The notes: generated by a model from the sequence alone, not told the origin. Counted from the first letter of the stretch, positions 1 through 49,326 are shown. The stretch: DNA of 64,000 nt from Muribaculaceae bacterium (GCA_017546805.1 JAFYRT010000028.1:742-64741); one strand, 5' to 3'. A program made the numbers and translations.

Positions 1-2645
<2,645 letters not shown>

Positions 2646-5299: not shown

Positions 5300-5311
5300 T
5301 AGTTACACAGT

Positions 5312-7564: not shown

Positions 7565-7626
7565 CATAAAGGAGGAGAATCGCTTTTTTTAAGAGGTTCT
7601 CCCTGCTAATTTATAGAGGAAGAGAG

Positions 7627-8931: not shown

Positions 8932-8964
8932 CACAAAATATTAACCAATTTAGATAATAAAATT

Positions 8965-9939: not shown

Positions 9940-9954
9940 TATTTCTATAGGTGT

Positions 9955-9996
9955 ATTCCGTAAATTAGGCCGATAGTTCTGCCTGATTTACGGAAT
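9955..9996 (+). other. 16-bp stem-loop between GH130 and GH92, without a T tract
   Basis: attccgtaaattaggc (9955-9970) pairs with gcctgatttacggaat (9981-9996), with one G-U pair. The loop is cgatagttct. Confidence 0.6.
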
Positions 9997-10018
9997 TATC
10001 CGCTATTAAGTAAAAGGT

Positions 10019-27873: not shown

Positions 27874-28061
27874 AATATTCAGTTTTTTATTTCATAATGA
27901 AATCGCATAAATAGTTAATTACTGCTATGCGATATGTCCCAATATTAAATTTATTCAAATTTGTTTTGTCGAAGTTGCAAAGTAATAAAAAAATAGAATA
28001 ATAACCAACTCTTGTATGTAAGAATCTGTTAAAAAATTTCATCTTTTAGCGATATTTTGAT

Positions 28062-28094
28062 ACTAAAATAGCGGAAAGATGTAACTCTCCGCCA
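28062..28094 (-). terminator. Rho-independent terminator after aroK; the hairpin arms match the GH92 terminator
   Basis: Minus strand reads tggcggagag ttacat ctttccgcta tttt. Compare tagcggagag ... ctttccgcta ttttttt at 12305-12340. Confidence 0.65.
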
Positions 28095-28129
28095 TTTTTT
28101 AGATGTTTTTAGTTGCAATTAGATAATTT

Positions 28130-28660
28130 TTATTTATCCTCTGATATTAGTTCAAGAATCTTTTTTGCAGTCTCAATAGCACCCTCTTCGGTTGATAGAG
28201 GGTCGGCATCTATTATAATTGATGCGTTGTTGTAGAAAGGCTCGCGTTTTGGTAAGGAGTTTTCGATAAACTCTTTTATCTCCTCGTCGTTTTTGTCTTT
28301 TAACAGAGGACGGGTGGCTTTATATATCTTTAAACGTTCAAACAACTCCTCTCTACTGCAATTTAGGTATACAACGTTTCCGTTCTCTTTCATATACTCC
28401 ATATTGTCAAAGAAACAAGGAGTGCCACCTCCTGTAGCAATAACGCCACCAATTGTTTCGGTAACATCTTTCAGTGCCTTGCGTTCCATATTACGAAATT
28501 CATCCTCACCTTTTTGAGCAAAAATTTCGTTTATTGTTTGCCCCTCACGCTCCTCTATGTATTGGTCAAGGTCGGTAAACGTAACATCGGCAATCTCTTT
28601 TAACAAAGTTCCGAGTGTTGTTTTCCCCGAACACATGTAGCCTATTAGGTATATTGTCAT
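28130..28660 (-). CDS. aroK: Shikimate kinase
   Basis: 176 aa. Walker A GYMCSGKTT, plus VIATGGGTP. Confidence 0.9.
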   Translation of the reverse strand: MTIYLIGYMCSGKTTLGTLLKEIADVTFTDLDQYIEEREGQTINEIFAQKGEDEFRNMERKALKDVTETIGGVIATGGGTPCFFDNMEYMKENGNVVYLNCSREELFERLKIYKATRPLLKDKNDEEIKEFIENSLPKREPFYNNASIIIDADPLSTEEGAIETAKKILELISEDK

Positions 28661-32824: not shown

Positions 32825-33706
32825 TTACATATAATAAAGATCATCCCTATCCATAGAGATATATCGGTTAATGGCAAAGAATGCCGATATGGATGTAAGA
32901 ATCACACCTAAAATCAGAACCACACCAAAAATTTGAATGAGGGTGAAGAAATTTATCAAAATCGCAAGATTTTCAAACTCGCTAACCAAGTAGTATGCAC
33001 AACCCGATAGGAGAGCAATTGCAATTATGGCAGCAACAATTCCCTCAACAACATTACGGACAATAAACGGACGTCTGATAAATCCGGGGGTAGCACCCAC
33101 AAGCTTCATTGTGTGAATAAGGAAGCGTCTTGAATATGCCATTAATCGAATGGTATTGCTAATGAGGGCAAATGAGATAATCATTAGAATTACCGATATC
33201 GAGAGCAATATTATCTCAGCCTTGCGAAGGTTGTCGTTAATAACCTGTATAACATCTTTTTGGCAGATAACCTCCGAAACAACCTCTCTGTGTTCTTTTA
33301 TTTTAGCCTCAATCCAAGCAAGCGAATCGGTCGAAGCATATTCTGCCAAAAGTTTAATCTCTATGGACGATTGCAAAGGATTAAAACCTAATAAATCTTT
33401 GGGGCTCTCTCCGAGTTCGAGTTCCAGCTCTTTAAGAGCATCCTCTTTTGAAATAAACTGTACGGCTTTAACATATGGCGCTTTATCCAACTCCTTCTTT
33501 ACCGATTCAATGCCACGTTTCGAAGCAGAATCTTTTATTACAATGGTAAAGCCCATGTTCTCTTTAATATGTTTTGTAAGTTGAGTTCCCAATATCGATA
33601 GCGATACAACAATTCCCAATAAAAACAGTACGAGCGAAATACTGATAATTGATGTTACTCTGGCGTTTAAGAACGAGATATGTTGCTTGTTGTTTTCTTG
33701 TCCCAT
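32825..33706 (-). CDS. ftsX: Cell division permease FtsX-like protein
   Basis: 293 aa. One N-terminal TM, a periplasmic domain and three C-terminal TMs. Motif MKLVGATPGFIRRPF. Confidence 0.8.
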   Translation of the reverse strand: MGQENNKQHISFLNARVTSIISISLVLFLLGIVVSLSILGTQLTKHIKENMGFTIVIKDSASKRGIESVKKELDKAPYVKAVQFISKEDALKELELELGESPKDLLGFNPLQSSIEIKLLAEYASTDSLAWIEAKIKEHREVVSEVICQKDVIQVINDNLRKAEIILLSISVILMIISFALISNTIRLMAYSRRFLIHTMKLVGATPGFIRRPFIVRNVVEGIVAAIIAIALLSGCAYYLVSEFENLAILINFFTLIQIFGVVLILGVILTSISAFFAINRYISMDRDDLYYM

Positions 33707-33967: not shown

Positions 33968-34002
33968 AGAGGGTGCCCCGTTTCCCTTTTGGAGCACCCT
34001 CT
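33968..34002 (-). terminator. Candidate terminator after the last gene of the T9SS cargo array
   Basis: agagggtgc / gcaccctct is a 9-bp stem with a 17-nt loop. On the minus strand it is followed by cttgttt. Confidence 0.5.
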
Positions 34003-34026: not shown

Positions 34027-35106
34027 TTAATCACAAATTACCTTTATAACCTCATCGTTTACTTTTACAATCAATACCCCTTTCGTGTTTGAAGGAAGGG
34101 TAATTTGGGTAGATGTTGCACCATTTGCGTTAGTTGAAGTTATAACTTTACCCATTGCATCATACACTACTACTGAATCTATGCCCTCTGTGTTTTCGAT
34201 GTTCAATATTTTGTTTTGTACAAATGCTTTGGTTTTGCTTTCAGTAATATTGTTCTCCTCAACTCCCTGTATAACTGATTCAGGGTCAACACCCTCTCCA
34301 AAGACAAAGGGTTGAATTTCTGTACCTATCGACATTCCGTTGTAATATCCCTCCTCTTGCAATTGAATCACCTTATGCATTGTGGCTTTTATTGTTCCTT
34401 TATCTGCCTTCATAAAGCCATCTGCATCAACCGTGCAACCCTCTTTAAAATCCCAATAGCCAAGTAGTGATGCATCTCTTAACAAGGGTGAGGTCATACT
34501 CTTAATAACCTGTGCTTGCGATAAAGCCTTATTATATATCTGAACTTTATCAATATACGCATTTAATGGAGCGAAAAGCCATACATCACCTCCTATCATA
34601 ATATTGTAATTACTCTTTAATACATATGTGTGCCAACCATCAAGTTTATACATTGGCACACCGTCCACATAAATAAACATTACTCTATCTGAAGAATAAT
34701 CGAAAACATATGTAAAATATACCCATTCATTCGACTTAAGAGTAAATGAGTCCTGTATTAAATATGCAAAATCAGGTGTTCCCGATGAGTTTCTAATTTG
34801 GGCATAAAGAATTTCTCCCGGATCTACAGTTGAGGTCATCCATCCCCTATCGCACAAAGGCCATCCTTCGTTAATATCCCTAATATCCAATAAAGAAGTA
34901 GCAATTTCTGAATGTTTGAACTCTTTAACATTTATCCAAAAAGATATTGAAAACTTTTGATGAGCTGTAAATTGTAATTGATTCATTGGGATAACAAAGG
35001 AATTCTTATTTAAGTCAATTCCTTGGGGTTGATTATCATTTGCTCTAACTGATAATATAGAAAATATCATTAAAGATATTAGTAAATGTAATTTAAATGT
35101 TTTCAT
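34027..35106 (-). CDS. LamG-like T9SS cargo protein, paralog E
   Basis: 359 aa. Leader MKTFKLHLLISLMIFSILSVRA. LamG_3-like PLNAYIDKVQIYNKALSQAQV. C-terminal VVVYDAMGKVITSTNANGATSTQITLPSNTKGVLIVKVNDEVIKVICD. Confidence 0.7.
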   Translation of the reverse strand: MKTFKLHLLISLMIFSILSVRANDNQPQGIDLNKNSFVIPMNQLQFTAHQKFSISFWINVKEFKHSEIATSLLDIRDINEGWPLCDRGWMTSTVDPGEILYAQIRNSSGTPDFAYLIQDSFTLKSNEWVYFTYVFDYSSDRVMFIYVDGVPMYKLDGWHTYVLKSNYNIMIGGDVWLFAPLNAYIDKVQIYNKALSQAQVIKSMTSPLLRDASLLGYWDFKEGCTVDADGFMKADKGTIKATMHKVIQLQEEGYYNGMSIGTEIQPFVFGEGVDPESVIQGVEENNITESKTKAFVQNKILNIENTEGIDSVVVYDAMGKVITSTNANGATSTQITLPSNTKGVLIVKVNDEVIKVICD

Positions 35107-35113
35107 GATTTAT

Positions 35114-35210
35114 CTATTTTACTATAATTTTTTGTGCATTTATATTTTCATTAATAATGACCGCAATAATATACATTCCAGGAGTAAGCGAATATTGATA
35201 AATCTCTCCG
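35114..35210 (-). pseudogene. Remnant of the 3' end of a gene like 36320-38815
   Basis: Aligns with 36320-~36420, including the stop codon and the identical 7-nt spacer gatttat before the next ATG. The rc encodes ...YSLTPGMYIIAVIINENINAQKIIVK*. A 2-nt length difference near ggcggaga breaks the frame upstream. Confidence 0.75.
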
Positions 35211-35241
35211 CCATTTTTAGTTGCATTTACACAATAATGCC

Positions 35242-36312
35242 TTAATCACAAATTACCTTTATAACGTCATCGTTTACTTTCAAAATTAGTACTCCTTTCG
35301 TATTTGAAGGAAGTGTAATTTGAGCAGATGTTGCACCATTTGCATTATCTGTGGTTATTACTCTACCCATTGCATCGTAAACTACTACCGAATTTATGCC
35401 TTCTGTATTTTCAATGTTTAACCTTTCATTCGAAACAAATGCTTTGGTTTTGCTTTCTGTAATATTGTTCTCCTCAACTCCCTGTATAACTGATTCGGGG
35501 TCTACACCCTCTCCAAAAACAAAGGGTTGAACTTCTGTACCTATGGAAACTATACTACTTGTTAAAATTTTATACATGGTAGCCTTTACTGAGCCTTTAT
35601 CTGCCTTCATAAAACCATCTGCATCGGTAGTGCATCCATCTTCAAAATTCCAATATCCAAGCAGTGATGCATCTCTTAACAAAGGTGCTGTCATAATCTT
35701 AATAATACTTGCTTGAGATAAGGCCTTTTTATATAATTGGACCTTATCAATATATGCACTTAATGGAGAACGTAACGATGATATTCCTCCTATCATAATG
35801 ATATTTTTTTCGGTCCATGAGTATGTATCATACGTTCCTTTTACCTCATATACAGGAGATCCATTCATATATAACGTAAGCTTCCTATTTTCATCATAAT
35901 CAAACACAAAAGAGAAGTTAAGCCACTCTTCTTTTGTAAAATCGAATGATGATAACTTTTCTGCATTAAATCCTGATGATCCAGACGACCTAACAGTCAT
36001 ATTAAGAATATTTTTAGAATCGTTAGGTTCTACAAATGCCCACATCCAACCGTAATCACTCATTACATAAGGGTCCTCCGGATTGCGAATACTCACAAAT
36101 AGGGTACCATAATCTGAATGGTCAAACTCTTTTACTTTTACCCAAAATGAAAGAGTAAATGGTGATTGATTATTAAAATTAAGTTGCTCAACAGGTATTC
36201 CAAAGGCATACTCTCCAAGGTCTATTCCTTGGGGTTGATTATCATCTGCTCTAACTGATAATATAGGAAATATCATTAAGGATATTAGTAAATGTAATTT
36301 AAATGTTTTCAT
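35242..36312 (-). CDS. LamG-like T9SS cargo protein, paralog D
   Basis: 356 aa. It has the same leader and C-terminal half as E and B, with a divergent core. Motif LTLYMNG...IIMIGG...PLSAYIDKVQLYKKALSQASI. Confidence 0.7.
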   Translation of the reverse strand: MKTFKLHLLISLMIFPILSVRADDNQPQGIDLGEYAFGIPVEQLNFNNQSPFTLSFWVKVKEFDHSDYGTLFVSIRNPEDPYVMSDYGWMWAFVEPNDSKNILNMTVRSSGSSGFNAEKLSSFDFTKEEWLNFSFVFDYDENRKLTLYMNGSPVYEVKGTYDTYSWTEKNIIMIGGISSLRSPLSAYIDKVQLYKKALSQASIIKIMTAPLLRDASLLGYWNFEDGCTTDADGFMKADKGSVKATMYKILTSSIVSIGTEVQPFVFGEGVDPESVIQGVEENNITESKTKAFVSNERLNIENTEGINSVVVYDAMGRVITTDNANGATSAQITLPSNTKGVLILKVNDDVIKVICD

Positions 36313-36319
36313 GATTTAT

Positions 36320-38815
36320 CTATTTTACTATAATTTTTTGTGCATTTATATTTCCATCTATTATTACTGCAATAATATACATTCCAGGAGTAAGCGAATA
36401 TCGATAAATTTCTTCGCCTGCTTGATGAAAAGATTCTGGCAATAATAATAAGTCTTGCGCTGTTTGCAAATTTACAGCTTTTATGCAGTATGTACTTGTT
36501 TTGTCTATTCCCACTGCCACCGTTATACCACCATTGTTTGTATATATCTTAACTTTATCTTCATTACTTCGTATTTTACCTGTTTGAGGTAAAGTTTCTA
36601 TACTTTCATCTTGTAGCATAGTCTTAATAAATAGGCGAACATTTCCCCAAGATGTTCTTACAATATTCCCCTCTAATGGAGCATTCATTATTTTATCCCA
36701 TACTTCTTTTGCTCTTGTTCCTTCAACTGATGATATATCTTTTATCAATACAGCTGCAAAATAGTCTCCCTCATCAAATTTTTTATATACCTTATATTCC
36801 TCTCCAGGATTTGACAATATATAATCTACTAAACAAGGATAAACAATTGAGTCTTTATAAAATTCAATATTGCTATAATATGAATTTTCTTTTATATATT
36901 TTTTCCATTGACTATAATATTGTTCAAATTTATCTTGTCTATATGTTGTAATTATACTTTGAGAAAGAATTGTTTTTTCTTCTGCTGTAAGTTGTGTATC
37001 TTCAATTATCATTTCTCCTTCTGCAATAGATGAATAAAGCATTCCCTCGTACGAATATTCAACATTCTCTTGCCCTGGAGCTAACCTATAATGATATAAG
37101 ATTTTCCCATATGTAGGTCCTTCTAATGCATCTCTAGGATGAAAAAACCTATAAAAGTATGCATCTTTACTTTCCCAATCATATCCATTAGGTATTCCGC
37201 TATATGGATTTCTTACAGATGCATGTCTTATGATTGTATCATTATCTTCTGTTATATCTCCCCATAAATCAATAACTGCATTTTCATATGTAGCACCATC
37301 TCTGATATAAACAGGAGATCTAGGAGGTCTTCTTGTTTTACCATACATATTATAAAAATCCCTATTTCTATACAATAAATCGAAGTCTTCTATGCTCAAT
37401 CCAGCTAAATGATTATACATAATTCCTGCACTCCATGCATAACAATTATAAGACATATTGCATTTCCCTGATTCTATCGCATCTTCATATTTTAATTTAG
37501 GGAATCTATCCTTAAAGCCTGAATAAACCAAAGTATCAATATTATTCCAATATGAATGATATAATACACATGCGTCAACATTTGTGCGATGAATATAAGG
37601 CAGAGAAGAACAAGTTGTAATAAAATATTGCTTTGTTGAATCCAACTTCGTTCTTATGCGTGCATTCTTCTTCCAATCAAAAGTTGTTTCTACATTGTTG
37701 TCATCATTATAAGCAACTATAATACTACTTGTATCTTGTCCCGTAATAACTCTTTGCTTTAAATACAAAATAGGGTCTGGAGTATGAGTAATTGTATCAG
37801 TATACAGATGATTAGTTGTAAACATGTTAAAAATACTATCTTGAGAAGAGATAAATATATTATTTGCTTCATCTTTTCTTTTTACTTCTACTGTCATATT
37901 AGGATACATGTAACAATGTTGATAAATAACATCATTTACTATAATAGTTGCGAATCCACTCATATATGAAGATTTTGGCTCTAATATTAAACAATATTCT
38001 CCTTCTGTTGGCAATCTATTATCTAAACAAAAAAAGTGATGATTTTCTGTATAAAAACTTTTTGAATAAACCGACGGATCTGATTTATAAAATAAATATG
38101 CATTATAATCTATTGTACTTTCATATTGGTCGTTTAAATTCGATGAAATCGGAGCGATCAGATCTACAATTAATGGCAATCTCTCCCCTGTGTTTGGATC
38201 TATCTTATGGGTAATATATAAATCTATAATTGGCGTATATACATATTTTATTAAGCTTTCAATTCCAGGACGATATAATGGTTCATTTGGATCTATGTAA
38301 ATATATCTATTAGAATCAATATAATTTAAATTATATTCGTGCTCATTCTCATTAATTACCTCTTCCACATTTGAAGTTGTGCTCATTAAATTATGAATAA
38401 AAGGATTTGTTGTATTGTCGTCCAATATATTTACTTCTTTTATTTGTGGAACATCATCTCTTCCTGATATAAATTGAACGATATTATCTCCTGCATTAAG
38501 ATTTACAAAATCTCCTCTTAAAGAGATAAATTGCCACCCATAAGTACTGAAAAAAATAGGTTCTACTCTCCGAATTCCATTTACACTAATTGTTAATGTC
38601 GTAAACGTCCCATCTGGATATTCTCCCGGCATTATTAAAAAAGACAAATAACACATTTGAGGCTCAGGAGATGTTACAATAAATGTTGCGACTCCTCTTC
38701 CACTAATAGAAGTACAGCCTACATACTTAGAGGTTACTTGATTGTTTGATGCATATATCTCTAATGTAAAAATCAGAGATAGTAGCATTGCTAATAATGT
38801 GTAAAATTTTTTCAT
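36320..38815 (-). CDS. Large AT-rich secreted protein of unknown function with a T9SS-like C-terminal tail
   Basis: ORF 36320..38887. I prefer the internal Met, which gives signal peptide MKKFYTLLAMLLSLIFTLEIYA. The C-terminus YRYSLTPGMYIIAVIIDGNINAQKIIVK is CTD-like. An internal NCYAWSAG ... IIRHASV resembles a papain-like Cys/His pair. The composition is visibly more AT-rich than flanking genes. Confidence 0.7.
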   Translation of the reverse strand: MKKFYTLLAMLLSLIFTLEIYASNNQVTSKYVGCTSISGRGVATFIVTSPEPQMCYLSFLIMPGEYPDGTFTTLTISVNGIRRVEPIFFSTYGWQFISLRGDFVNLNAGDNIVQFISGRDDVPQIKEVNILDDNTTNPFIHNLMSTTSNVEEVINENEHEYNLNYIDSNRYIYIDPNEPLYRPGIESLIKYVYTPIIDLYITHKIDPNTGERLPLIVDLIAPISSNLNDQYESTIDYNAYLFYKSDPSVYSKSFYTENHHFFCLDNRLPTEGEYCLILEPKSSYMSGFATIIVNDVIYQHCYMYPNMTVEVKRKDEANNIFISSQDSIFNMFTTNHLYTDTITHTPDPILYLKQRVITGQDTSSIIVAYNDDNNVETTFDWKKNARIRTKLDSTKQYFITTCSSLPYIHRTNVDACVLYHSYWNNIDTLVYSGFKDRFPKLKYEDAIESGKCNMSYNCYAWSAGIMYNHLAGLSIEDFDLLYRNRDFYNMYGKTRRPPRSPVYIRDGATYENAVIDLWGDITEDNDTIIRHASVRNPYSGIPNGYDWESKDAYFYRFFHPRDALEGPTYGKILYHYRLAPGQENVEYSYEGMLYSSIAEGEMIIEDTQLTAEEKTILSQSIITTYRQDKFEQYYSQWKKYIKENSYYSNIEFYKDSIVYPCLVDYILSNPGEEYKVYKKFDEGDYFAAVLIKDISSVEGTRAKEVWDKIMNAPLEGNIVRTSWGNVRLFIKTMLQDESIETLPQTGKIRSNEDKVKIYTNNGGITVAVGIDKTSTYCIKAVNLQTAQDLLLLPESFHQAGEEIYRYSLTPGMYIIAVIIDGNINAQKIIVK

Positions 38816-38978
38816 AATACCCTCCTTTTTTATAAAGAAAATTAATTTTGCATTAAAGATAAATTTAATACATTGAAATTCAAACACATTCCCATATATT
38901 TAGCATTTTTTAACATATGGAGGTAAGATAATGAGCTGAGCCCTGCTCATTACCTAAAGACTAAATATATATCCTAAT

Positions 38979-40085
38979 TTAATCACAAATTACCTTTATA
39001 ACCTCATCGTTTACTTTTGCAATCAATACCCCTTTCGTGTTTGAAGGAAGGGTAATTTGAGTAGAAGTTGCGCCATTTGCGTTAGTTGAAGTCATAACTT
39101 TACCCATTGCATCATACACTACTACTGAATCTATGCCCTCTGCATTTTCGATGTTCAATATTTTGTTTTGTACAAATGCTTTGGTTTTGCTTTCAGTAAT
39201 ATTGTTCTCCTCAACTCCCTGTATAACTGATTCAGGATTTACCCCCATCCCAAAAGTGAATGGTTGAACTTCAGTACCTATTGATTCTTCATAACTATTG
39301 CTTAATATTTTATACATAGTGGCTTTAATTGTTCCTTTATCTGCCTTCATAAAACCATCTGCATCAGTCATACATCCATCTTCAAAATCCCAATAGCCAA
39401 GTAGTGATGCATCTCTTATCAAAGGAGCGCTCATACTCTTAATAACCTGTGCTTGAGATAAAGCTTTGTTATATAATTGAACTTTGTCAATATATGCATT
39501 TAATGGAGAACGATTATATGCAGGTCCACCTATCATAATTATTGAACCTGCTGGTCTTGGCATCAAAAAAGTATCGCCATACAAAGATTCAAATTTTAGA
39601 GTCTGTTTCCCATTTACATATACAAACAGTTGTGCTTTATTGGTAATGTAGTATTGAAATGAAATATGAACCCATTCCCCAGGATAAAATTTATATTCTT
39701 CAATATGCTTTAAATAAGTAAACCAAGAGCCAATATTCTCAAAAACATAGAAAGTCATCATATCATCACCCAATTTATTGTCATACATATCGTATGCTTC
39801 TCCTATAGTTGAATGAATATATGGGAAATCACACCAAATCCAATTGCCGTTAGGATTGCGAATATTAATAAATTGAGTACCGAGTTCGCGGTGATTAAAC
39901 TCTTTGATATTTAACCAAAATGAAAGAGTAAATGGTGATTGATTATTAAAATTAAGTTGCTCAACAGGTATTCCAAAGGCATACTCTCCGAGGTCTATTC
40001 CTTGGGGTTGTTCATTATTTGCTCTAACTGATAATATAGGAAATATCATTAAAGATATTAGTAAATGTAATTTAAATGTTTTCAT
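38979..40085 (-). CDS. LamG-like T9SS cargo protein, paralog B
   Basis: 368 aa. Leader MKTFKLHLLISLMIFPILSVRA. Motif PLNAYIDKVQLYNKALSQAQV. The C-terminal ~140 aa are nearly identical to E. Confidence 0.7.
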   Translation of the reverse strand: MKTFKLHLLISLMIFPILSVRANNEQPQGIDLGEYAFGIPVEQLNFNNQSPFTLSFWLNIKEFNHRELGTQFINIRNPNGNWIWCDFPYIHSTIGEAYDMYDNKLGDDMMTFYVFENIGSWFTYLKHIEEYKFYPGEWVHISFQYYITNKAQLFVYVNGKQTLKFESLYGDTFLMPRPAGSIIMIGGPAYNRSPLNAYIDKVQLYNKALSQAQVIKSMSAPLIRDASLLGYWDFEDGCMTDADGFMKADKGTIKATMYKILSNSYEESIGTEVQPFTFGMGVNPESVIQGVEENNITESKTKAFVQNKILNIENAEGIDSVVVYDAMGKVMTSTNANGATSTQITLPSNTKGVLIAKVNDEVIKVICD

Positions 40086-40092
40086 GATTTAT

Positions 40093-40191
40093 CTATTTTA
40101 CTATAATTTTTTGTGCATTTATATTTCCATCTATTATTACCGCAACAATATACATTCTAGGAGTGAGTGAATATTGATAAATCTCCCCGCC
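40093..40191 (-). pseudogene. Second remnant of the 3' end of a gene like 36320-38815
   Basis: Same junction (stop, gatttat, ATG) and the same ~100 nt as 36320-36420 and 35114-35210. The rc encodes ...TPRMYIVAVIIDGNINAQKIIVK*. Confidence 0.75.
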
Positions 40192-40220
40192 ATTTTTAGT
40201 TGCATTTACACAATAATGCC

Positions 40221-41423
40221 TTAATCACAAATTATCTTTATAGCCTCATCGTTTACTTTTACAATCAATACCCCTTTCGTGTTTGAAGGAAGGGTAATTT
40301 GGGTAGATGTTGCACCATTTGCGTTAGTTGAAGTTATAACTCTCCCCATCATGTCGTAAACCGAAATATTTGTTATCTCTTCCGAGCTTTCGATATATAA
40401 AACTCCGTTCGAGGCATATGCTTTGATGTTCTCAACATCGTTTATACTCTCCTCTATGCCTGTCACTTCGGGGGCTAAATCAATCTTGTCAAACTTATCG
40501 TTCTCAAAGCGGAACAAAACATCATTTGACATCAATATCCAAACTGCGTTTTCGTCGCAAAGGATTGCTCGTGTATCGTGGTATCCATAGCTGTTCCACC
40601 ATTTGAAATGTGCGCCATCGTATCGTAAAAGGTAGTGCGATGATGTAAACCATACATTACCCTCGTTATCTATGTCGCTTGCAAAAAAGTGGGCGGCGGG
40701 AATACTGCTGTCAGTATCGTTCCAATATTTTGTTTTTATGCCTGTGGTTGTGTTGTAATATATCAATCCTCTCTCTATGGTGTACCAAATATTGTCGTGT
40801 TCATCTATTGTTAATGAGGGTAATACGGTATTCCCTTCTGCAATGACGCTTTCGCAATAGTTGTTGCCTCTTTTGTGGCATAGTAGCGAATTGAACTCCC
40901 CGAATATCGATATCCATAAATTGCCTTTGCTGTCAAACTCCATATCCATGATATAGGCTTTTTGAGTGCTTGAGTAGTTGTCGGGAGTTGTGTGTCCTAT
41001 TTGAGTATCTTCAATCATGGGGGATATGTAGTATCCACCTGCCGATACCCATATCGAATCGTTTGTATCAAAGGCAAAAGCCAATCTCAAAAGGTCCTCC
41101 TTGTAGTAATCGAAATGGGCCTCACTCTTTTCTCCATCGAAAAAATATACTCCCTCTCCATCAACCGAATACCATACTCTGCCGCTTTTGTCTGCCTTAA
41201 TGCACTTGACAATGGAGTTTTCGTCAATTCCAAGAAGTTCATTTGCATTATAAGCCACTTTCTCTGTTTTGTCGTATCTTATAACTCCTTTGCTTGTTGC
41301 CACCCATATGTTTTTTCCGTCGTCAGCCAAACGATTGAAGTAGTTGCTTTCGTTTAATGTTTCGCCTCTTGATGTAAAGCAACACATCACTAATATTGTC
41401 AATGTCAATAACTTTGCTTTCAT
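40221..41423 (-). CDS. Stand-alone beta-propeller (two-component-regulator-propeller-like repeats) protein with T9SS C-terminal domain
   Basis: 400 aa with a signal peptide. Repeated blades include NIWVATSKGVIRYD, RVWYSVDGEGVYFFDG, NLWISIFGEF, NIWYTIERGLIYYN, NVWFTSSHYLLRYDG and AVWILMSNDVLFRF. The C-terminal 40 aa are encoded by DNA almost identical to paralog E. Confidence 0.65.
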   Translation of the reverse strand: MKAKLLTLTILVMCCFTSRGETLNESNYFNRLADDGKNIWVATSKGVIRYDKTEKVAYNANELLGIDENSIVKCIKADKSGRVWYSVDGEGVYFFDGEKSEAHFDYYKEDLLRLAFAFDTNDSIWVSAGGYYISPMIEDTQIGHTTPDNYSSTQKAYIMDMEFDSKGNLWISIFGEFNSLLCHKRGNNYCESVIAEGNTVLPSLTIDEHDNIWYTIERGLIYYNTTTGIKTKYWNDTDSSIPAAHFFASDIDNEGNVWFTSSHYLLRYDGAHFKWWNSYGYHDTRAILCDENAVWILMSNDVLFRFENDKFDKIDLAPEVTGIEESINDVENIKAYASNGVLYIESSEEITNISVYDMMGRVITSTNANGATSTQITLPSNTKGVLIVKVNDEAIKIICD

Positions 41424-41448: not shown

Positions 41449-41456
41449 CAAACATA
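41449..41456 (-). promoter_or_regulatory. Bacteroidota -7 box (minus strand) upstream of the array
   Basis: Plus-strand caaacata equals minus-strand tatgtttg, 26-33 nt upstream of the ATG at 41423. Confidence 0.4.
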
Positions 41457-41756: not shown

Positions 41757-43043
41757 ATGGGTTATCTATTTACATCAGAATCGGTGTCAGAGGGACATCC
41801 CGATAAAGTTGCAGATCAAATATCGGATGCGCTTCTCGATGAGTTTTTGGCTCAAGATAAAAATTCAAAAGTTGCTTGTGAGACATTGGTTACAACAGGA
41901 CAAGTTGTAATTGCGGGAGAGGTTAAATCGAATGCTTATATCGATTTGATGGATGTTGCACGTCGTGTTATCAATCGCATTGGTTATACTAAAAGTGAGT
42001 ATAACTTCGATGGCGATTCATGTGGAGTCTTCTCTGCAATTCACGAACAAAGTGCCGATATAAATCGTGGAGTTGAGCGAAGCAGCGAAATGGAACAAGG
42101 AGCTGGAGACCAAGGAATGATGTTTGGTTATGCTTCGTCGGAGACCGACAATTATATGCCTTTGTCTTTGGAGTTATCGCACAAATTGTTGATTGAGTTG
42201 GCTGCAATACGTCGAGAGGGCAAAGAGATGAAATATCTTCGCCCTGATGCAAAGAGCCAAGTTACAATTGAGTATGACGACAACAATACTCCTTTGAGAA
42301 TTGATACTATTGTGGTATCTACTCAACACGATGATTTTGTAAAACCCGGACAAACAATTACTCAAGAGCAAGCAGATACAGAGATGTTGGCTCAAATTCG
42401 TAAAGATGTTGCCGAGATTTTGATTCCTCGCGTAGTGGCTTCGTTGCCCGAAAGAATTAAGCTTTTGTTCAAAGGCGATTACAAACTTTATGTAAATCCA
42501 ACAGGAAAATTCGTAATTGGTGGTCCTCATGGAGATACAGGTTTGACAGGACGTAAAATAATTGTTGACACATACGGAGGTAAAGGTGCGCACGGAGGTG
42601 GTGCATTCTCAGGTAAAGACCCCTCAAAAGTTGACCGTTCGGCAGCATATGCAGCACGTCATATTGCAAAAAACCTTGTTGCCGCCGGCGTGGCAGATGA
42701 GGCTTTGATACAGTTGTCGTATGCAATTGGTGTTGCAGAACCTATCAGCGTATATGTAAATACTTACGGAACTGCTAAAAACGGATTGAAAGATTCTGAA
42801 ATTGCAGAAAAGGTTAACGAGATTTTCGACCTTCGCCCATATGCTATCGAAGAGCGTTTGAAATTGCGTAATCCAATTTATGAGGAGACTGCGGCATACG
42901 GACACATGGGACGAGAGCCTAAGACAATCATCAAAAAATTCTCTTCTCGTTACACTCCCGAAATTGTAAAAGAGGTGGAACTTTTCACTTGGGAGAAACT
43001 CGATTATGTAGAGAAAATCAAACAAGCATTTGATATAAAATAA
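41757..43043 (+). CDS. metK: S-adenosylmethionine synthetase
   Basis: 428 aa. Motifs [26 protein letters not shown] and [16 protein letters not shown]. Confidence 0.95.
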
Positions 43044-43123: not shown

Positions 43124-45265
43124 ATGGATTGGAGTTTTATAACATCACAACTTCCCCTAACCAACTCGGCACTTATATTTTTTATAGTGTTGACCATTAT
43201 CCTTTTTGCTCCAATAATATTGGACCGATTGCACATTCCCCATATAATAGGATTAATCTTTTCGGGAATGTTAATCGGTCCTTATGGTTTCAATATACTC
43301 GAATACGATGCAAGTTTTGAGATATTCGGAAATGTGGGACTGCTCTACCTGATGTTCCTTGTGGGTTTGGAGATGAGTATCTCCGATTTTAACAAAAACA
43401 AGAAACGGGGTATAAGTTTTGGACTTATAACCTTTATTATCCCTCTGTCAGCAGGATTGGCGGTATCTCACTATGCGTTGAAACTGAGTTGGGTGGCATC
43501 GGCATTGCTCTCTACAATATATGCGTCGCATACACTTATATCGTTTCCGATAGTATCGCGATATGGTGTGGTAAAATCGCGTTCGGTCTCAACCGCCATT
43601 GCAGGAACTGTTATTGCTGTGGTTGTTGCATTGACAACAATGGCAGTGGCGATTGGTATTGCCGAAGGTGGAGTGGGCACTCTATATTGGATAAAATTTG
43701 CAATTGGAGTTATCCTATATGGAGCGGTTATAATATACACCTATCCTCGTATCACACGTTGGTTCTTTAAGAAATATAACGATAATGTTTCGCAGTTCAT
43801 CTTTATATTATCGTTGGTTTTTGCCGCAGCCTATTTTGCCGAATTGGTGGGCTTGGTTGGTATTATAGGTGCATTCTTTGCAGGAATTATATTGACTCGT
43901 TATATACCAGCTGTGTCTCCTCTTATGAACCGATTGGAGTTTGTGGGGAATGCCTTGTTTATTCCATACTTCCTTATAGGGGTTGGAATGATGATAAATC
44001 TACGAGGTTTCACTTCGTGGTATAGCATATATGTTGCCTTGATTATGACGGCTGTGGCAATAGCCTCAAAATGGTTGTCGGCATATGTCATGCAGAAATC
44101 GTTCAGAATGACATCTTCTGAGGGGCGTATGCTCTTTGGATTGAGTACTGCAAAGGCTGCGGCAACATTGGCGGTTGTGCTTATAGGTTATGAAATGGGA
44201 CTTTTTGACAGCACCATTCTTAACGGTGCCATTCTTATGATATTGATATCTTGTACAGTCAGCGCTTTGTTTACCGAAAGAGCCGCAAAAGAGATCGCAC
44301 TATCCTCTATGAATGACGAGGAGCCTCAAAAAACCGAGAAGTTGCCACAGAAGATATTGGTGTCGGTTTCAAACCCCATGACTGCCGAGTTGTTGGTAAA
44401 CATGGCCATGGTTATGAAAAACCCCAAAGTAAAGAATCCTCTCTATTTCTTGAATGTTGTAAATGAGGCACGCCATGATAATCCTGCTTCGGCAAAAATC
44501 TCAAGCAATCTGTTGACTCATGCATCAAAAATAGCTGCAGCTGCAGATATTCAGGTTGAGACAATAACCCGTTTTTCGATGAACGTGGCAAGTGGAATTA
44601 TACATACGATGAAGGAGAAGGGTATTTCGGAACTTCTTATAGGTATTCATCACAAAGCAAATATTGCAGACTCTTTCTTTGGTTCAACAGCCGATGCCAT
44701 ATTAAGAGGAACTAACAAAACCATATTTATTGCAAAGAGCATTATTCCTGCCAATACCCTGACTCGAATAATTGTCTATATTCCCGAGAAGGCGGAGTAT
44801 GAGACAGGTTTTGGAACTTGGGTAAGCAGAGTGGCTAATATGGCGGCGCAATTAGGTTGCAAGACGATTTTTTACGGACATCGCGATACATTGGGACAGA
44901 TAAAAGGCCGACTTATTCGTGAAAAACGAAACATCCGTGCCGAGTATCACATAATGGATAAATGGAACGATATATTGATGCTTACAGGTGTGGTTTTGGA
45001 GGACGACCTTTTTATAATTGTATCTGCGCGTCAGGCATCGGTTTCTTATACCGCCAACCTGGATAAATTGCCATCATTCCTTTCTAAATACTTTGCCAAT
45101 AATAACCTCGTGATATTATATCCCGAGCAATTTGGAGAGGTGGGTGATGTCACATATTTCAGCGATCCTCTATCAATAACCGTACATCAAAATCACGCAT
45201 ACATAAATCGCATAAAGAAATATCTGACATCTCTTTTTAAATCATCTCGAGCAGGTGAATTATAA
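43124..45265 (+). CDS. Cation:proton antiporter (CPA2/Kef-like) with a C-terminal cytoplasmic regulatory (USP-like) region
   Basis: 713 aa. The N-terminal ~390 aa are polytopic (IIGLIFSGMLIGPYGFN, LMFLVGLEM). The C-terminal ~320 aa are soluble. Confidence 0.8.
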   Translation: MDWSFITSQLPLTNSALIFFIVLTIILFAPIILDRLHIPHIIGLIFSGMLIGPYGFNILEYDASFEIFGNVGLLYLMFLVGLEMSISDFNKNKKRGISFGLITFIIPLSAGLAVSHYALKLSWVASALLSTIYASHTLISFPIVSRYGVVKSRSVSTAIAGTVIAVVVALTTMAVAIGIAEGGVGTLYWIKFAIGVILYGAVIIYTYPRITRWFFKKYNDNVSQFIFILSLVFAAAYFAELVGLVGIIGAFFAGIILTRYIPAVSPLMNRLEFVGNALFIPYFLIGVGMMINLRGFTSWYSIYVALIMTAVAIASKWLSAYVMQKSFRMTSSEGRMLFGLSTAKAAATLAVVLIGYEMGLFDSTILNGAILMILISCTVSALFTERAAKEIALSSMNDEEPQKTEKLPQKILVSVSNPMTAELLVNMAMVMKNPKVKNPLYFLNVVNEARHDNPASAKISSNLLTHASKIAAAADIQVETITRFSMNVASGIIHTMKEKGISELLIGIHHKANIADSFFGSTADAILRGTNKTIFIAKSIIPANTLTRIIVYIPEKAEYETGFGTWVSRVANMAAQLGCKTIFYGHRDTLGQIKGRLIREKRNIRAEYHIMDKWNDILMLTGVVLEDDLFIIVSARQASVSYTANLDKLPSFLSKYFANNNLVILYPEQFGEVGDVTYFSDPLSITVHQNHAYINRIKKYLTSLFKSSRAGEL

Positions 45266-45278
45266 TAATATTGAATAC

Positions 45279-48200
45279 ATGCGAGAACATATAAAATACC
45301 TTCTTATACTGCTTATTGTCTCCTCTGTTTTGCCTTTGATGGCACAAACCGGTTTTGGAGGGACTCCACCAAGCTGGAATCTGCAAAAGACAAAGATGAA
45401 GTCGGCGAATGAGTTAAAAACTCATGCTATATCAAATCCCTTTACCGTAGAGCAACTTCTCAAAGATGAGGAGGAGAGCAATGATATGCCCGAGAGGGTG
45501 GGAATAAACCTTGCAACAAAACTATCTCTTGCCGAGGACGGAGAGTGGTGTCAGTTGCCGTCAGGCGAAAAGATATGCCGTTTGAAGATAGAGTCTTCGG
45601 GAGCTTTGGCAATATCTCTTTACTACTCCAAATTTGAGATACCGCAAGGAGCAAAACTATATATCTACAACACCGATCATTCGCATTTATTGGGAGCATA
45701 TACCTTTGAGACAAACCCCGAAGGAGGGGCCTTTGCAACAGAGTTTGTTGCGGGAGACAACCTTATTTTGGAGTATGTGGCAGCCTCCTTGTCAGATATG
45801 CCACAAATTGAGTTGGAGAAGATATGTTATGGCTACAAAAATCTAAAAGTGTCATCCGATGCAAAGTTGAGTTGTATGGTAGATGTTGTGTGTAGCGAGG
45901 GGGAGGATTGGATAGATGAGAAGGATGGAGTGGTGAAGATGGTAACCACAATAGGCAACTACTCATATATGTGTACAGCCACACTTTTGAACAATACCGC
46001 GGAGGATTTCACTCCATATATTTATACTGCATTTCACTGTTTAGAGGGTGATGGCCATACGGCATCTGCTATTGACTTAAAAAAGACAATCTTCTATTTC
46101 AATTACGAAGCAACAGAGTGCGGAAGTGATAATGTAAAGGAGAGCTCATCTCTTGTGGGTTGCAATTTACTTGAAGGAAAAAGTTTGAGTAGCGATGAGG
46201 GGTTGGATCAAGCTCTTTTGTTGCTATCTTCCGAAATGCCCAAATCAATCATACCCTATTTTAATGGTTGGGACAGAGGGACAAATCCTCCGCAGACAGG
46301 AGTATCTATTCACCATCCTAAGGGTGCGGTAAAGAAAATATCAACATACATCACCCCTGCAGTAAGCGATACTTGGCCCTCGATGTCATCAGGTGGAGTA
46401 AATGCTCATTGGGTTGTAAGATTTACCCGTACGGCAAACGGATTTTCTGTAACAGAGGGAGGTTCATCCGGGTCTCCGCTATTTAATCAAGTAAAATTGG
46501 TAACCGGGTCATTGACAGGAGGAAATTCCTCTTGTTTAAATACTTTGGGTACAAATTATTATGGAAAGCTTCAACGATTTTGGACTCATGTTTCAAAGTA
46601 TCTCGACCCTGTGAATAGTGGAGCATATACACTACAAGGCAAGCGAAAGGGCGAGGTCATAGACTCCCCTAAAGGTTTAAATGCAAAACTAACAGATAAT
46701 GCCACCAAAGTTGAGTTGTCGTGGTTGCCGTTGAGTAATGCACCTACAAATTATGTGGTATATCGTAATGGCATGATAGTGGGGCATCCTGTCTCAAACA
46801 ATTTTACGGATGAGGGTATATATACAGGAAAGCACACATATCAGGTCTCGGCATATTATGCCGATGTAAAACAGGAGACCGAAAAAAGTAATCAAAGCAT
46901 AGTTGTTAAGTCTCCCGCGGTAACTCCAGAAATTGAGGAGGTTGTAAGAACTTCTGAAAACAGCATTGCTTTGAATTGGACTCTTCCGCAAAGTGAGCAG
47001 ACTATATTCTGGGGTACGGGGGAATCCAATTACAGACTGAAGGCAAACACTTCGTATCCTGTCTATTTCGGGCAGATGTGGAGCGATTCTGATTTGTCGG
47101 GATTAGCGGGCTATGTGATAAAAAGAGTTGAAACAACCTGTTTGGCAAATGTAAATTACACCCTCTATATCAGGCAGGGAACAAACATATACACACAATC
47201 CATCCCAATTTACTCGGTTGACAAAAAGGTGTCGATAACTCTTGATAAGGAGTTTGTGGTAAACGACAAAGCCCCTCTGTATTGCACATTAAGGGTTAAT
47301 AGTGGTAATGGCTACTTGGTGGCAACGGATAGTGATAAAATAGTGGAAGGAAAGGGGAATATAGTCTCTACCGATGGGTACGAATGGCATAGCTTGGATA
47401 CAAAGGGTAATATTGCCATTAAGGTCATACTCTCTCCTCCTTCTGAAGGATATAGGGGAGTTGAGACGGTCAGTGAGTTTGGCGATATGTCAGTCTATTC
47501 TTCCGTACCTGTTGCATATGTGCGTCCGGAGAGATACAGACTCTACCGCAATGAAGAACTATTGGCAACCTTGTCGGGTTTGACAAGTAAGCATATCGAC
47601 CGAAACCTCATCAAAGGAACAACCTACGAATACCGCTTGGAGGCAGAGTATAAGGATGGAGAGATTTGCTCAAGTATGCCGTATTCATTCCATTTAAGTG
47701 ATAAGGGTTTCTCTTCGCAGATAGAGGAGGTTGTGGTTAACGGAGTAAAACTAAATGAAGAACGAGGAGGAAAATTTATCTATTCGGCTTCCTGTTCAAA
47801 CGATATTGCCGAGGTTGTTGTTACAGCTAATAATAACGGAGTGATTGTTATAAATGGGGTAGAGAGTAATGAATATGTTGAGGATATATCGCATGGAGGT
47901 AAGTATATATTGCCCATTACCGTAATTTCGGAGAGCGGAGAGAGTCGAAACGAGTATGAATTGGCTATGTATAAGCTCTCTTCGGAGATATTGGTAAGGC
48001 GTTGGGATGATGTACTTGCCGTAAATAACAATCCCGATAATAATGGAGCAATGAACTTTGTCGAATACACTTGGTATCTCAATGGAGAGGAGTTGGAGGG
48101 TAACGAACCCTACATAACAATCCCGAGCGGAGTTGATACCAACGACTTTATTTCTGTAAAGGTTGTTACGGAAGAGGGGGTAGAGTTGAGAAGTTGTGAT

Positions 48201-48461
48201 ATGAACTTCGATGTAATCGATAGCAGTATATTGATATATCCGAACATTGTTGAACGAGGAGAGAAGATTACGTTAAATATAACAGCTCCTCAGTCAATAA
48301 CAGTATCAGCAACACTTTCTCATCTGTCGGGTCAGATTCAACCCTTAAATCTTATTTTGGGAGATAATATAATAACGGCTCCGCAGGTGTCAGGTACATA
48401 TATAATCAATGTTGTTCTCTCAAGCGGAACAGCAAAGAGTCTGAAATTTATTGTTAGATAA
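45279..48461 (+). CDS. Secreted S1 (chymotrypsin-fold, lysyl-endopeptidase-like) serine protease with Ig/Fn3-like repeats and T9SS C-terminal domain
   Basis: The ORF opens at GTG 45255. ATG 45279 gives signal peptide MREHIKYLLILLIVSSVLPLMAQ. Catalytic triad candidates are TAFHC (His), LDQALLLL (Asp) and GGSSGSPLF (Ser). The tail SILIYPNIVERGEKITLN...GTYIINVVLSSGTAKSLKFIVR fits the Por secretion tail pattern. Confidence 0.8.
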   Translation: MREHIKYLLILLIVSSVLPLMAQTGFGGTPPSWNLQKTKMKSANELKTHAISNPFTVEQLLKDEEESNDMPERVGINLATKLSLAEDGEWCQLPSGEKICRLKIESSGALAISLYYSKFEIPQGAKLYIYNTDHSHLLGAYTFETNPEGGAFATEFVAGDNLILEYVAASLSDMPQIELEKICYGYKNLKVSSDAKLSCMVDVVCSEGEDWIDEKDGVVKMVTTIGNYSYMCTATLLNNTAEDFTPYIYTAFHCLEGDGHTASAIDLKKTIFYFNYEATECGSDNVKESSSLVGCNLLEGKSLSSDEGLDQALLLLSSEMPKSIIPYFNGWDRGTNPPQTGVSIHHPKGAVKKISTYITPAVSDTWPSMSSGGVNAHWVVRFTRTANGFSVTEGGSSGSPLFNQVKLVTGSLTGGNSSCLNTLGTNYYGKLQRFWTHVSKYLDPVNSGAYTLQGKRKGEVIDSPKGLNAKLTDNATKVELSWLPLSNAPTNYVVYRNGMIVGHPVSNNFTDEGIYTGKHTYQVSAYYADVKQETEKSNQSIVVKSPAVTPEIEEVVRTSENSIALNWTLPQSEQTIFWGTGESNYRLKANTSYPVYFGQMWSDSDLSGLAGYVIKRVETTCLANVNYTLYIRQGTNIYTQSIPIYSVDKKVSITLDKEFVVNDKAPLYCTLRVNSGNGYLVATDSDKIVEGKGNIVSTDGYEWHSLDTKGNIAIKVILSPPSEGYRGVETVSEFGDMSVYSSVPVAYVRPERYRLYRNEELLATLSGLTSKHIDRNLIKGTTYEYRLEAEYKDGEICSSMPYSFHLSDKGFSSQIEEVVVNGVKLNEERGGKFIYSASCSNDIAEVVVTANNNGVIVINGVESNEYVEDISHGGKYILPITVISESGESRNEYELAMYKLSSEILVRRWDDVLAVNNNPDNNGAMNFVEYTWYLNGEELEGNEPYITIPSGVDTNDFISVKVVTEEGVELRSCDMNFDVIDSSILIYPNIVERGEKITLNITAPQSITVSATLSHLSGQIQPLNLILGDNIITAPQVSGTYIINVVLSSGTAKSLKFIVR

Positions 48462-48462
48462 T

Positions 48463-49326
48463 ATGAAAAGGTTATTTACATATATCGCGATTCTTATGCT
48501 CTCTGTTTCTGGGAGTGTAGCCCAAAATATTCGCAATAATATTACCTTGGAATTGACAGGTGGAGCATCGGCCTTTAACTACAAAGTCAATTTAGGTGAT
48601 TATAGAGTTATGGCAGGAACTTCTGCTGCAATAAAATATCAATATAACATCGATTGGAATTGGAGTGTTGGAATTGGTGGAGAGTTAAAATTGTACCAAT
48701 CCTCTCTAAGGTTCGACAGCTACTCGGATTCATACCAGACCGAGGCAAATTCGTTAATGTCGGGCAATGCCGATGTGATGACATTTTCTTACGCTTATAA
48801 AAACCTCGAGGAGCGTCAAAGAGCTCTCTATGTAAACGTTCCAATATATGCCCAATATAAGTTTGATAGTGGCTTTTATATAAGGGCAGGAGCCAAGTTC
48901 GGTGTTCCGGTGAAAGCGCGAAGCGAAATATATTTTGAGGAGCTTACAACCAAGGGATATTTCCCTCTTGAAAATATAACATACTCCAACTTGCCACAAC
49001 ATGGTTTCGGGGCATACTACAATACAGAGGTTGACAAGAAATACAAAATGGAGTTTAACACTTCGCTTTGTGCTGAATTGGGTTGGACATGGGAATGGAG
49101 CGAACAATATGTACTATACCTTGGTCTTCATGGCGAGTATGGATTTGGTCCGCTCTATAAACGTTCTGAATTGGCTCCCCAATTGCAATATAGAGGAGGA
49201 GAATTCGATTATACCCCGATATGGAACGCAAATGTGCAGAATGGCAATGAGAGAACGGCTGTAACAGGAGATAAGATAAGGACTTTTGCAATAGGTTTGT
49301 TGGTTCGCTATTCATTTGGTTTCTAA
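48463..49326 (+). CDS. Outer-membrane beta-barrel protein (porin/PorT-like family)
   Basis: ATG lies 1 nt after the protease stop. Signal peptide MKRLFTYIAILMLSVSGSVAQ. Alternating hydrophobic strands and a C-terminal LLVRYSFGF ending in Phe. Confidence 0.65.
   Translation: MKRLFTYIAILMLSVSGSVAQNIRNNITLELTGGASAFNYKVNLGDYRVMAGTSAAIKYQYNIDWNWSVGIGGELKLYQSSLRFDSYSDSYQTEANSLMSGNADVMTFSYAYKNLEERQRALYVNVPIYAQYKFDSGFYIRAGAKFGVPVKARSEIYFEELTTKGYFPLENITYSNLPQHGFGAYYNTEVDKKYKMEFNTSLCAELGWTWEWSEQYVLYLGLHGEYGFGPLYKRSELAPQLQYRGGEFDYTPIWNANVQNGNERTAVTGDKIRTFAIGLLVRYSFGF

Follow-up and report, generated by a model that had tools for sequence, protein, structure and literature searches.

The stretch of DNA analysed here, 64,000 nucleotides (nt) from a Muribaculaceae bacterium (accession no. 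GCA_017546805.1, JAFYRT010000028.1, positions 742–64741; hereafter the window), contains at positions 34027–41423 an array of five intact open reading frames (ORFs), termed A to E, all encoded by the minus strand. Their number, strand and coordinates, as well as the 7-nt gap between C and D (36313–36319), had been given in an initial annotation made from the sequence alone, and were reproduced by a six-frame ORF list. Gene A (40221–41423; 400 amino acids, aa) encodes a signal peptide, a Reg_prop β-propeller and a type-A C-terminal tail of the type IX secretion system (T9SS). Genes B (38979–40085; 368 aa), D (35242–36312; 356 aa) and E (34027–35106; 359 aa) each encode a LamG jelly roll followed by a linker and a type-A tail, with a variable core at approximately 39543–39902, 35803–36129 and 34606–34923, respectively. 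Gene C (36320–38815; 831 aa counted from the ATG) encodes a signal peptide, a CBM35-like domain, β domains, a DUF7689 domain, a helical domain and a T9SS-like tail of its own. The array lies between two housekeeping genes, metK (41757–43043, plus strand) and ftsX (32825–33706, minus strand), and has a GC content of 30–34%, compared to approximately 41% outside it. A similar dip (0.329) was observed at gene F (12422–13474, plus strand; 350 aa), a sixth family member, which combines a LamG scaffold with a linker and tail of the B/D/E type and a different leader, with Gln predicted as the first residue after signal-peptide cleavage. The flanks of the array are 94.5–95.8% identical to the metagenome-assembled genome (MAG) of Candidatus Caccoplasma sp. 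(accession no. GCA_045613905.1), a lineage placed in the Bacteroidaceae.

The propeller and LamG assignments of the initial annotation were borne out by profile searches against Pfam and NCBIfam. Gene A scored 38.8 bits with Reg_prop (PF07494; cut-off 20.4) over the whole protein, with no single repeat significant alone, and Laminin_G_3 (PF13385; cut-off 27.6) was matched by B (49.8 bits), D (62.0 bits), E (68.1 bits) and F (64.8 bits). The tails of A (31.2 bits), B (24.1 bits), D (24.8 bits) and E (25.7 bits) are all above the curated cut-off of the type-A tail model TIGR04183 (23 bits). The claim that all five proteins end in a T9SS-type C-terminal domain holds for these four, the tail of C reaching only 16.9 bits. 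The tail of F is under the cut-off of PF18962 (18.6 bits), yet it is 75–78% identical to the tails of B, D and E. Inspection of the N-termini predicted Sec signal peptides with a positively charged n-region, a hydrophobic h-region and a small-x-small cleavage site (e.g. VRA↓N, IYA↓S and SRG↓E); in both structure models (E and C), low pLDDT (predicted local distance difference test) values were obtained for the N-terminal helix. Gene A also matched the NCBIfam PorZ model (NF052228) with an E-value of 4.8e-12, and PorZ likewise combines Reg_prop-type blades with a T9SS tail. This identity was rejected: the score was 45.1 bits against a cut-off of 260, and PorZ has two β-propellers (approximately 757 model positions) while the 400-aa product of gene A has one.

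The array had been described as five genes built from shared 5′ and 3′ cassettes. Both shared ends are found only in B, D and E, since A carries the 3′ cassette alone and C neither of them. The leaders of B, D and E are 95–100% identical to each other and their last 140 aa, counted from the LLGYW motif, are 79–84% identical, in agreement with the conserved leader and C-terminal region noted initially. Between these ends, residues 66–190 of B are only 21–31% identical to the corresponding parts of D and E, although B and D still share 84% identity over residues 23–65. The truly divergent part is therefore approximately 90–125 aa long, and not approximately 190 aa as first proposed; across the family the variable stretch corresponds to approximately residues 81–168 of E, the remainder being conserved. 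At the DNA level the transitions take the form of steps. Identity among the three units is approximately 100% over a stretch that starts about 60 nt ahead of the ATG and extends some 90 nt into the coding sequence; between B and D it remains at 87–100% for about 150 nt more, and B and E are 90–100% identical over the last 270 nt or so of the genes. In gene A the similarity is restricted to the 3′ cassette: identity to the LamG proteins is 62–66% over the last 80 aa, the final 45 aa or so are nearly identical to those of B, D and E, and the regions encoding the tails of A and E share an exact match of 98 nt (40244–40341 and 34050–34147).

The LamG-tail family comprises approximately 67 cluster representatives of 350–380 aa, all originating from Bacteroidales metagenomes or MAGs and named, where a name is given, "LamG domain-containing protein" or "hypothetical". 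Judging by the sequences recovered, it is confined to Candidatus Caccoplasma-like uncultured Bacteroidales. Comparison of 57 representatives revealed a bimodal distribution of core identity, with a median of 23% and a second mode above 85%; a threshold of 50% identity separates 19 core types. The flanks show a unimodal distribution (50–80%), and 21 pairs combine a core identity above 85% with flanks below 80%. The core type of E is at most 36% identical to that of any other recovered member, except for its own near-identical cluster P0001. The cores of B and D are 88–96% identical to those of their orthologues, yet the leaders are only 28–40% identical, compared to 88–92% among B, D and E in this comparison, and the same pattern was seen in two further genomes. 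The core of B and that of P0022, a family member from another genome (related loci are designated here by L numbers, in this case L009), are 95.4% identical at the nucleotide level (dS 0.16, dN/dS 0.16), whereas the flanks of the two genes are 83.5% identical (dS 0.61–0.70), matching the housekeeping background of approximately 84%; the difference between core and flanks is significant (Fisher p = 7e-5). Conversely, L002 and L011 are mostly 94–100% identical in their flanking housekeeping genes, but between their LamG cores the identity is only 37% (p = 1e-13), that of their DUF7689 genes falls to 64–94%, and the tail of the 332-aa gene has been replaced as well. As the initial annotation predicted, comparison across genomes revealed gain, loss and exchange of cassettes. 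The dN/dS values of approximately 0.16 indicate that each core type is under purifying selection and is not fast-mutating, and that each cassette type is therefore probably functional. Constant ends around a variable core were thus confirmed, whereas the diversifying character attributed to the core has to be replaced by some 19 discrete, conserved types with a bimodal identity distribution.

Ordinary tandem paralogy, in which the ends are kept constant by purifying selection and the middle has drifted, with neither recombination nor cassette exchange, would fit the occurrence of the constant-end, variable-middle pattern throughout the LamG-tail family as well as the low dN/dS of the flanks (0.1–0.3). 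Purifying selection leaves synonymous differences, however, and the proportion of synonymous differences (pS) in the leaders is 0–0.07 between paralogues, compared to 0.28–0.47 between orthologues, while synonymous sites in the core are saturated between paralogues. Nor would drift create the sharp steps of DNA identity, the 98-nt match between the non-homologous genes A and E, the many pairs whose cores are more alike than their flanks, or the unrelated cores held by two strains mostly 94–100% identical in the flanking genes. From these comparisons drift under constraint appears largely refuted, and we regard it as very improbable. An assembly artefact, i.e. a chimeric collapse or the misjoining of repeats, is a concern of another kind, as the window comes from a short-read metagenome assembly (k 141) and contains exact repeats of 73–98 nt. 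It is scarcely credible, because the longest of these repeats (98 nt) is shorter than k and the same gene neighbourhood is present on five contigs; in addition, all the ORFs are intact and analogous arrays occur in independent assemblies of related species. Diversity-generating retroelements, shufflons, an invertible promoter and silent-cassette donors were also considered and rejected. No reverse transcriptase or invertase gene is located nearby, no inverted repeats of at least 30 nt were detected in the 33.5–42 kb region or of at least 12 nt upstream of A, and all copies are full-length with a start codon and leader; the divergence of the cores is, moreover, far too great for a diversity-generating retroelement.

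The array has a mosaic anatomy, its ends are homogenised within the genome and its cassettes have been exchanged between genomes. Mechanistically, homologous recombination in the conserved ends would homogenise leaders, linkers and tails within a genome, extending even to the non-homologous gene A, and by the same process the middle part of approximately 90 aa would move, as a discrete cassette, from one paralogue, strain or species to another. Selection acting on the cassettes would then be balancing or frequency-dependent, rather than a form of mutational diversification.

The tails provide a further view of this homogenisation. Approximately 45 additional matches to the family share the tail only, and they comprise A-like Reg_prop proteins and a class of about 310–335 aa without a Pfam domain. 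In L002 the tail of the 325–335-aa class and that of the LamG protein both carry the insert LLTPNPSPxERG, which is absent from the two L011 tails compared (that of the 335-aa gene and that of P0042), so that tails appear to co-vary within a genome across unrelated cargo. Other tails in the window that are unrelated to the A/B/D/E type are approximately 20% identical to it. The third cargo class (325–335 aa, no Pfam domain, same linker and tail type) was located at positions 6326–7324 and 17152–18129 of L002 and 6246–7253 of L011.

The junctions between the genes record how the array was built. The A–B (40086–40220) and D–E (35107–35241) spacers, 135 nt each, share homology with one another as well as with the 3′ end of C, and have the same build. 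Each begins with 40 nt that normally follow the LamG stop codon, ending in a terminator's left arm, GGCGG(A/G)GAGAT (GGCGGGGAGAT in the A–B junction); next come 88 nt left over from the 3′ end of the DUF7689 gene, including the last codons of C and its stop (40093–40180 and 35114–35201), and finally the same 7 nt as are found between C and D, leading to the ATG. The corresponding terminator hairpin is intact in L013, in L006 and upstream of F. Since the spacers carry both the remnant of C and the 7 nt of the C–D gap, the duplicated unit consisted of the tail of C plus one LamG gene, and the array has expanded by tandem duplication through a defined junction. Genes B and E would each have arisen by duplication of the last 90 nt or so of C together with one LamG gene. 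The joining point would have been a microhomology shared by the coding sequence of C, which reads GGCGAAGAAAT at the join, and the left arm of the terminator downstream of the LamG gene. The halved terminator would favour read-through from A to B and from D to E. The same C-tail remnant precedes P0022 in L009, where this gene occupies a slot between aroK and porA.

A –7 box of the Bacteroidetes type, TATGTTTG, is present at 41449–41456 (minus strand), 33 nt upstream of the ATG of A, with TTTG a further 24 nt upstream. As the initial annotation had it, this is the one such box ahead of A; it is the only perfect TAnnTTTG in the intergenic parts of the array, and it has no flanking inverted repeats. 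A scan for sigma-70 promoters returned 37 sites, compared to 45.9 expected, and was thus uninformative for a Bacteroidetes genome. The array is closed by a terminator-like hairpin downstream of E (33968–34002, minus strand; 12 bp, GC-rich, z = –2.98), followed by the U-rich sequence UCUUGUUU. A weaker terminator-like hairpin follows B (38926–38955, minus strand; 11 bp, AU-rich, z = –1.6) and lacks a U tract, 163 nt precede C downstream of B, and no significant RNA structure was found in the A–B and D–E spacers. The single –7 box, the strong hairpin after E and the halved terminators at the A–B and D–E junctions speak for one operon, as first proposed, and the weak hairpin after B speaks against it; transcription as one operon and as two units (A–B and C–D–E) both fit these predicted signals.

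Analysis of related loci revealed that propeller, DUF7689 and LamG genes recur as a module in L002–L005, L009, L011, L012 and L017. The conserved module would consist of a Reg_prop propeller (A), a DUF7689/CBM35-like protein (C) and a LamG protein encoded immediately downstream of C (D). The slot between metK and ftsX is occupied by a propeller and one LamG gene in L005, by genes for NDH2, a propeller, a 332/335-aa protein, DUF7689 and LamG in L002–L004 and L011, by DUF7689 and LamG in L009, and by a propeller, DUF7689, a propeller–LamG fusion protein and LamG in L017. The fusion, a 696-aa in-frame product at positions 5756–7846 of L017, joins a Reg_prop propeller of the A type with a LamG domain plus tail and lies at the metK-side locus of another species, which hints that propeller and LamG proteins may act together. 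A second slot, between aroK and porA, is empty in the window (approximately 27874–28140) and holds a LamG, propeller or 325-aa cargo gene in relatives; this insertion hotspot is occupied at 9743–10849 in L009 and 17344–18585 in L011. Outside these slots, a 415-aa A-like Reg_prop protein with the same tail type is encoded at an unrelated locus (L007, 10860–12107) of the MAG that also contains L005, between a gene without an assigned function and rimP/nusA/infB-like genes, and in L016 a LamG gene lies beside a Reg_prop gene at another locus. A scan of genome contigs with gene E as the query revealed two loci only, because the peptide patterns used were drawn from the unique core of E.

The C–D module (38863–35202) is 92.7% identical over 3679 nt to its counterpart in L013, a locus of a different species, compared to 82–89% for the surrounding genes. 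In L013 the module is inserted at another site, and in L013–L015 it lies between the GH2 and GH20 genes of an N-glycan-type glycoside hydrolase (GH) cluster. No target-site duplication or mobility gene was visible at the C–D insertion site. The window contains a cluster of this type at 2951–12280 (plus strand), encoding GH20, GH20, a major facilitator superfamily transporter, GH130 and GH92 and adjoined by the end of a GH2 gene (approximately 4–2590, minus strand); it is conserved at 87–89% in L006 and L013. Gene F directly follows the GH92 gene, and the order is the same in L006. The statement that no SusC/D, regulator or recombinase gene accompanies the array was supported, whereas that on glycoside hydrolases is valid for the metK–ftsX slot and not for the family members located elsewhere.

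The structure predicted for gene E (pLDDT 85) consists of one jelly roll (approximately residues 30–270), a low-confidence linker (282–288) and a β-sandwich tail (291–359). The jelly roll of approximately 240 aa has a conserved scaffold formed by its first and last thirds, and the Pfam model spans only about residues 40–210 of it. Because the modelled jelly roll of E reaches approximately residue 270, part of what had been called the constant C-terminal half, conserved as it is, is the LamG domain's own last third. A Foldseek search with the E model, one of the checks proposed at the outset, confirmed the LamG fold and returned binding-type folds only; the best matches, with a probability of 1.00, were BACOVA_03559 (PDB 4dqa, a putative carbohydrate-binding protein), the HCN domain of botulinum neurotoxin (BoNT), the LamG domain of PAPP-A and pentraxin. 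Against viral structures only generic LamG matches were obtained. Comparison of the family profile with solved structures gave a weak match to the CBM40 lectin domain of a sialidase (E = 0.0023) and another weak match to the tail of RemA (8gl6), and gene E scored 30 bits with Toxin_R_bind_N (cut-off 23.8). No conserved catalytic motif was found in the LamG family alignment. A glycoside hydrolase role of the LamG domains was rejected, as only lectin-type LamG structures matched and GH131_N was under its cut-off. The LamG proteins are most likely surface or secreted ligand-binding modules with a glycan as the most likely ligand. They would cross the outer membrane via the T9SS and act as ligand binders at the surface or extracellularly, and the cassette would set the specificity or the antigenic type of binding.

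Gene C had been called a large orphan, a description that does not stand: its product matches DUF7689 (PF24738) with 40.9 bits (gathering cut-off 22.6) and has 41 full-length homologues, and its DUF7689 domain occurs in 295 clusters at 50% identity. The predicted structure (pLDDT 80) comprises an N-terminal CBM35-like domain (aa 28–130, nt 38426–38734; Foldseek probability 1.00, profile match to 2wz8 with E = 1.4e-4), β domains, the α/β DUF7689 domain (aa 452–577, nt 37085–37462), a helical domain and a C-terminal β-sandwich (aa 747–831, nt 36323–36577; pLDDT approximately 76–91), all encoded by the minus strand. The latter, T9SS-like tail is approximately 20% identical to the A/B/D/E tail, the same level as the unrelated tail of a 1068-aa protein encoded at 45255–48461 (plus strand). 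T9SS export of C is nevertheless supported, because other DUF7689 proteins, some with CBM96 or PPC domains, carry a clear Por_Secre_tail (28–39 bits). Alignment of 188 DUF7689 domain stretches revealed a conserved polar set (YNC458, W461, H531xS, HGYxWESK550, R556 and H559P), with E548 and H559 present in at least 97% of the stretches; in the model, C458 starts a helix (458–462) and H531 lies on a strand (527–535). This pattern suggests an enzyme, possibly a Cys-His hydrolase, or a catalytic or metal site. The DUF7689 domain gave only chance matches to solved structures by sequence, Foldseek with the whole C model matched only the CBM35-like N-terminus, papain-like or NlpC/P60-type cysteine hydrolases were matched neither by sequence nor by fold, a Pfam scan of 36 aligned homologues of C detected DUF7689 in all of them and nothing beyond it, and no paper on DUF7689 was found in the literature. 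The analysis places this domain in a context: predicted T9SS cargo with a CBM35-like partner domain, a conserved Cys/His set and, in the Caccoplasma-like loci compared, a LamG gene directly downstream.

As regards function, the array might serve the foraging of host N-glycans, with T9SS-displayed binders acting as accessory glycan-capture proteins for a GH2/GH20/GH92/GH130 pathway and cassettes matching different epitopes. The positions of F after GH92 and of the C–D pair between GH2 and GH20 would agree with such a role, as would the CBM35-like domain of C and the CBM40 match of the family profile. All the insertion slots, however, lie within one region of approximately 45 kb, where adjacency may merely reflect short-range duplication, and the main slot separates the housekeeping genes metK and ftsX, other copies being found beside ribosomal or cell-division genes; we therefore consider this role unlikely, though worth keeping in view. 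A polymorphic antagonism or targeting system is a still less probable option. In this scenario, C would act as a secreted Cys-His hydrolase that is guided by its CBM35-like domain, and the LamG cassettes would be receptor-binding partners exchanged in an arms race with competitors or with targets in the host. The nearly invariant polar residues of DUF7689, with a Cys at the N-terminus of a helix, are compatible with this proposal, and between near-identical strains no other genes diverge as strongly as C and the adjacent LamG gene, which travel together. The Toxin_R_bind_N score of gene E (30 bits) and the match to the BoNT HCN domain, which is LamG-like and lies in the receptor-binding half of clostridial neurotoxins, could be read in the same way. 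Yet the jelly roll of the HCN domain is of the generic LamG kind, LamG genes also occur singly and unaccompanied by a DUF7689 gene, no immunity-like gene is present at the locus, neither sequence nor fold comparison matched DUF7689 to a known family of toxins or hydrolases, and we know of no established precedent for a T9SS-delivered toxin of this kind.

The reading that we prefer is that the array arose by one local expansion within a family of T9SS-type cargo spread over several loci, exported to the surface as judged from its sequence signals, to which we assign a probability of about 0.6. Several points weigh against it. The machinery genes of the T9SS (sprA/sov, porK/L/M/N and porU/porV) were not found within the 64-kb window, and the tail of C scores below the curated cut-off. 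The variable segment covers whole strands and not loops alone, so that it need not be the ligand site, and the low dS of the B core could reflect nucleotide-level constraint instead of recent transfer. The link to glycans draws on fold resemblance and on the neighbourhood within one region of approximately 45 kb, which local duplication could explain. To speak of an uncharacterised secreted system, as the initial annotation did, is an overstatement; present evidence describes a recombining family of secreted binding-type proteins with no described function. The larger proposal that propeller, DUF7689/CBM35 and LamG proteins form one polymorphic T9SS-delivered system, with DUF7689 as a new Cys-His enzyme, the cassette setting the target (host glycan, competitor surface or phage) and the whole moving between species by homologous recombination alone, is speculative and rather improbable. 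If true, it would bear on strain-level niche partitioning or antagonism among gut Bacteroidaceae.

Other ORFs of the window deserve brief mention. The above-mentioned 1068-aa protein contains a serine protease-like motif (GGSSGSPLF) and sub-threshold matches to Trypsin_2, fn3 and Cadherin-like domains; it has a distinct T9SS-like C-terminal end, is probably a further T9SS cargo, and is encoded two genes from the array, past metK and a Na+/H+ exchanger gene. Two ORFs in housekeeping surroundings, at 19922–21667 (minus strand; 581 aa) and 48451–49326 (plus strand; 291 aa), had no Pfam match at E ≤ 1e-4.

Hardly any work exists on the T9SS cargo of uncultured gut Bacteroidales, and the locus offers a clean sequence-level case. 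In it, gene conversion keeps the export signals (leader and sorting tail) alike, even where the cargo that they belong to is non-homologous, and a piece of approximately 90 aa within one jelly-roll domain passes between strains and between species in the form of discrete, conserved types. Should ligand or antigen specificity be set by the cassette, the latter could mark niche, or escape from immunity or phages, at the level of strains, and the jelly roll would be a natural scaffold tolerating wholesale replacement of its middle. The understanding of the T9SS or of LamG domains is unchanged by these results, whose value is that of an experimental lead. No paper on LamG T9SS cargo arrays or on gene conversion among T9SS cargo was found in the literature, that on Caccoplasma consisted of taxonomic or survey papers only, and the initial statement that a LamG cassette array of this kind has no described role agrees with these searches. 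The components and the evolutionary pattern are of already known kinds; no paper that describes this pattern for T9SS cargo or for the LamG-tail family was found.

The proteins share a Sec leader and a C-terminal β-sandwich sorting domain of approximately 70–80 aa with the type-A cargo of the T9SS, such as RgpB of P. gingivalis and RemA of F. johnsoniae. They differ in that one tail type, 62–96% identical, is found on non-homologous cargo (propeller, LamG and the 332-aa class) and co-varies within genomes. With the lectin modules of the Laminin_G_3/ConA-like group (4dqa, the sialidase CBM40 and BoNT HCN) the LamG proteins have the jelly-roll fold in common (Foldseek probability 1.00), but the identity is only 12–16%. 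Recombination between T9SS cargo genes of one genome is familiar from rgpA, kgp and hagA of P. gingivalis, which share near-identical stretches. There, the shared part consists of the repeated adhesin domains, whereas in the array it is the export ends, around functional middles that differ. The evolutionary pattern has a parallel in babA, babB and babC of H. pylori, in which near-identical 5′ and 3′ ends surround a divergent, ligand-determining middle that is moved between a few loci by gene conversion, so that the placement of alleles varies by strain. The Bab proteins are outer-membrane β-barrel adhesins of a proteobacterium, while the products of the array are predicted to be soluble T9SS cargo, in which the exchanged part lies inside a single jelly roll and occurs as approximately 19 discrete types across species.

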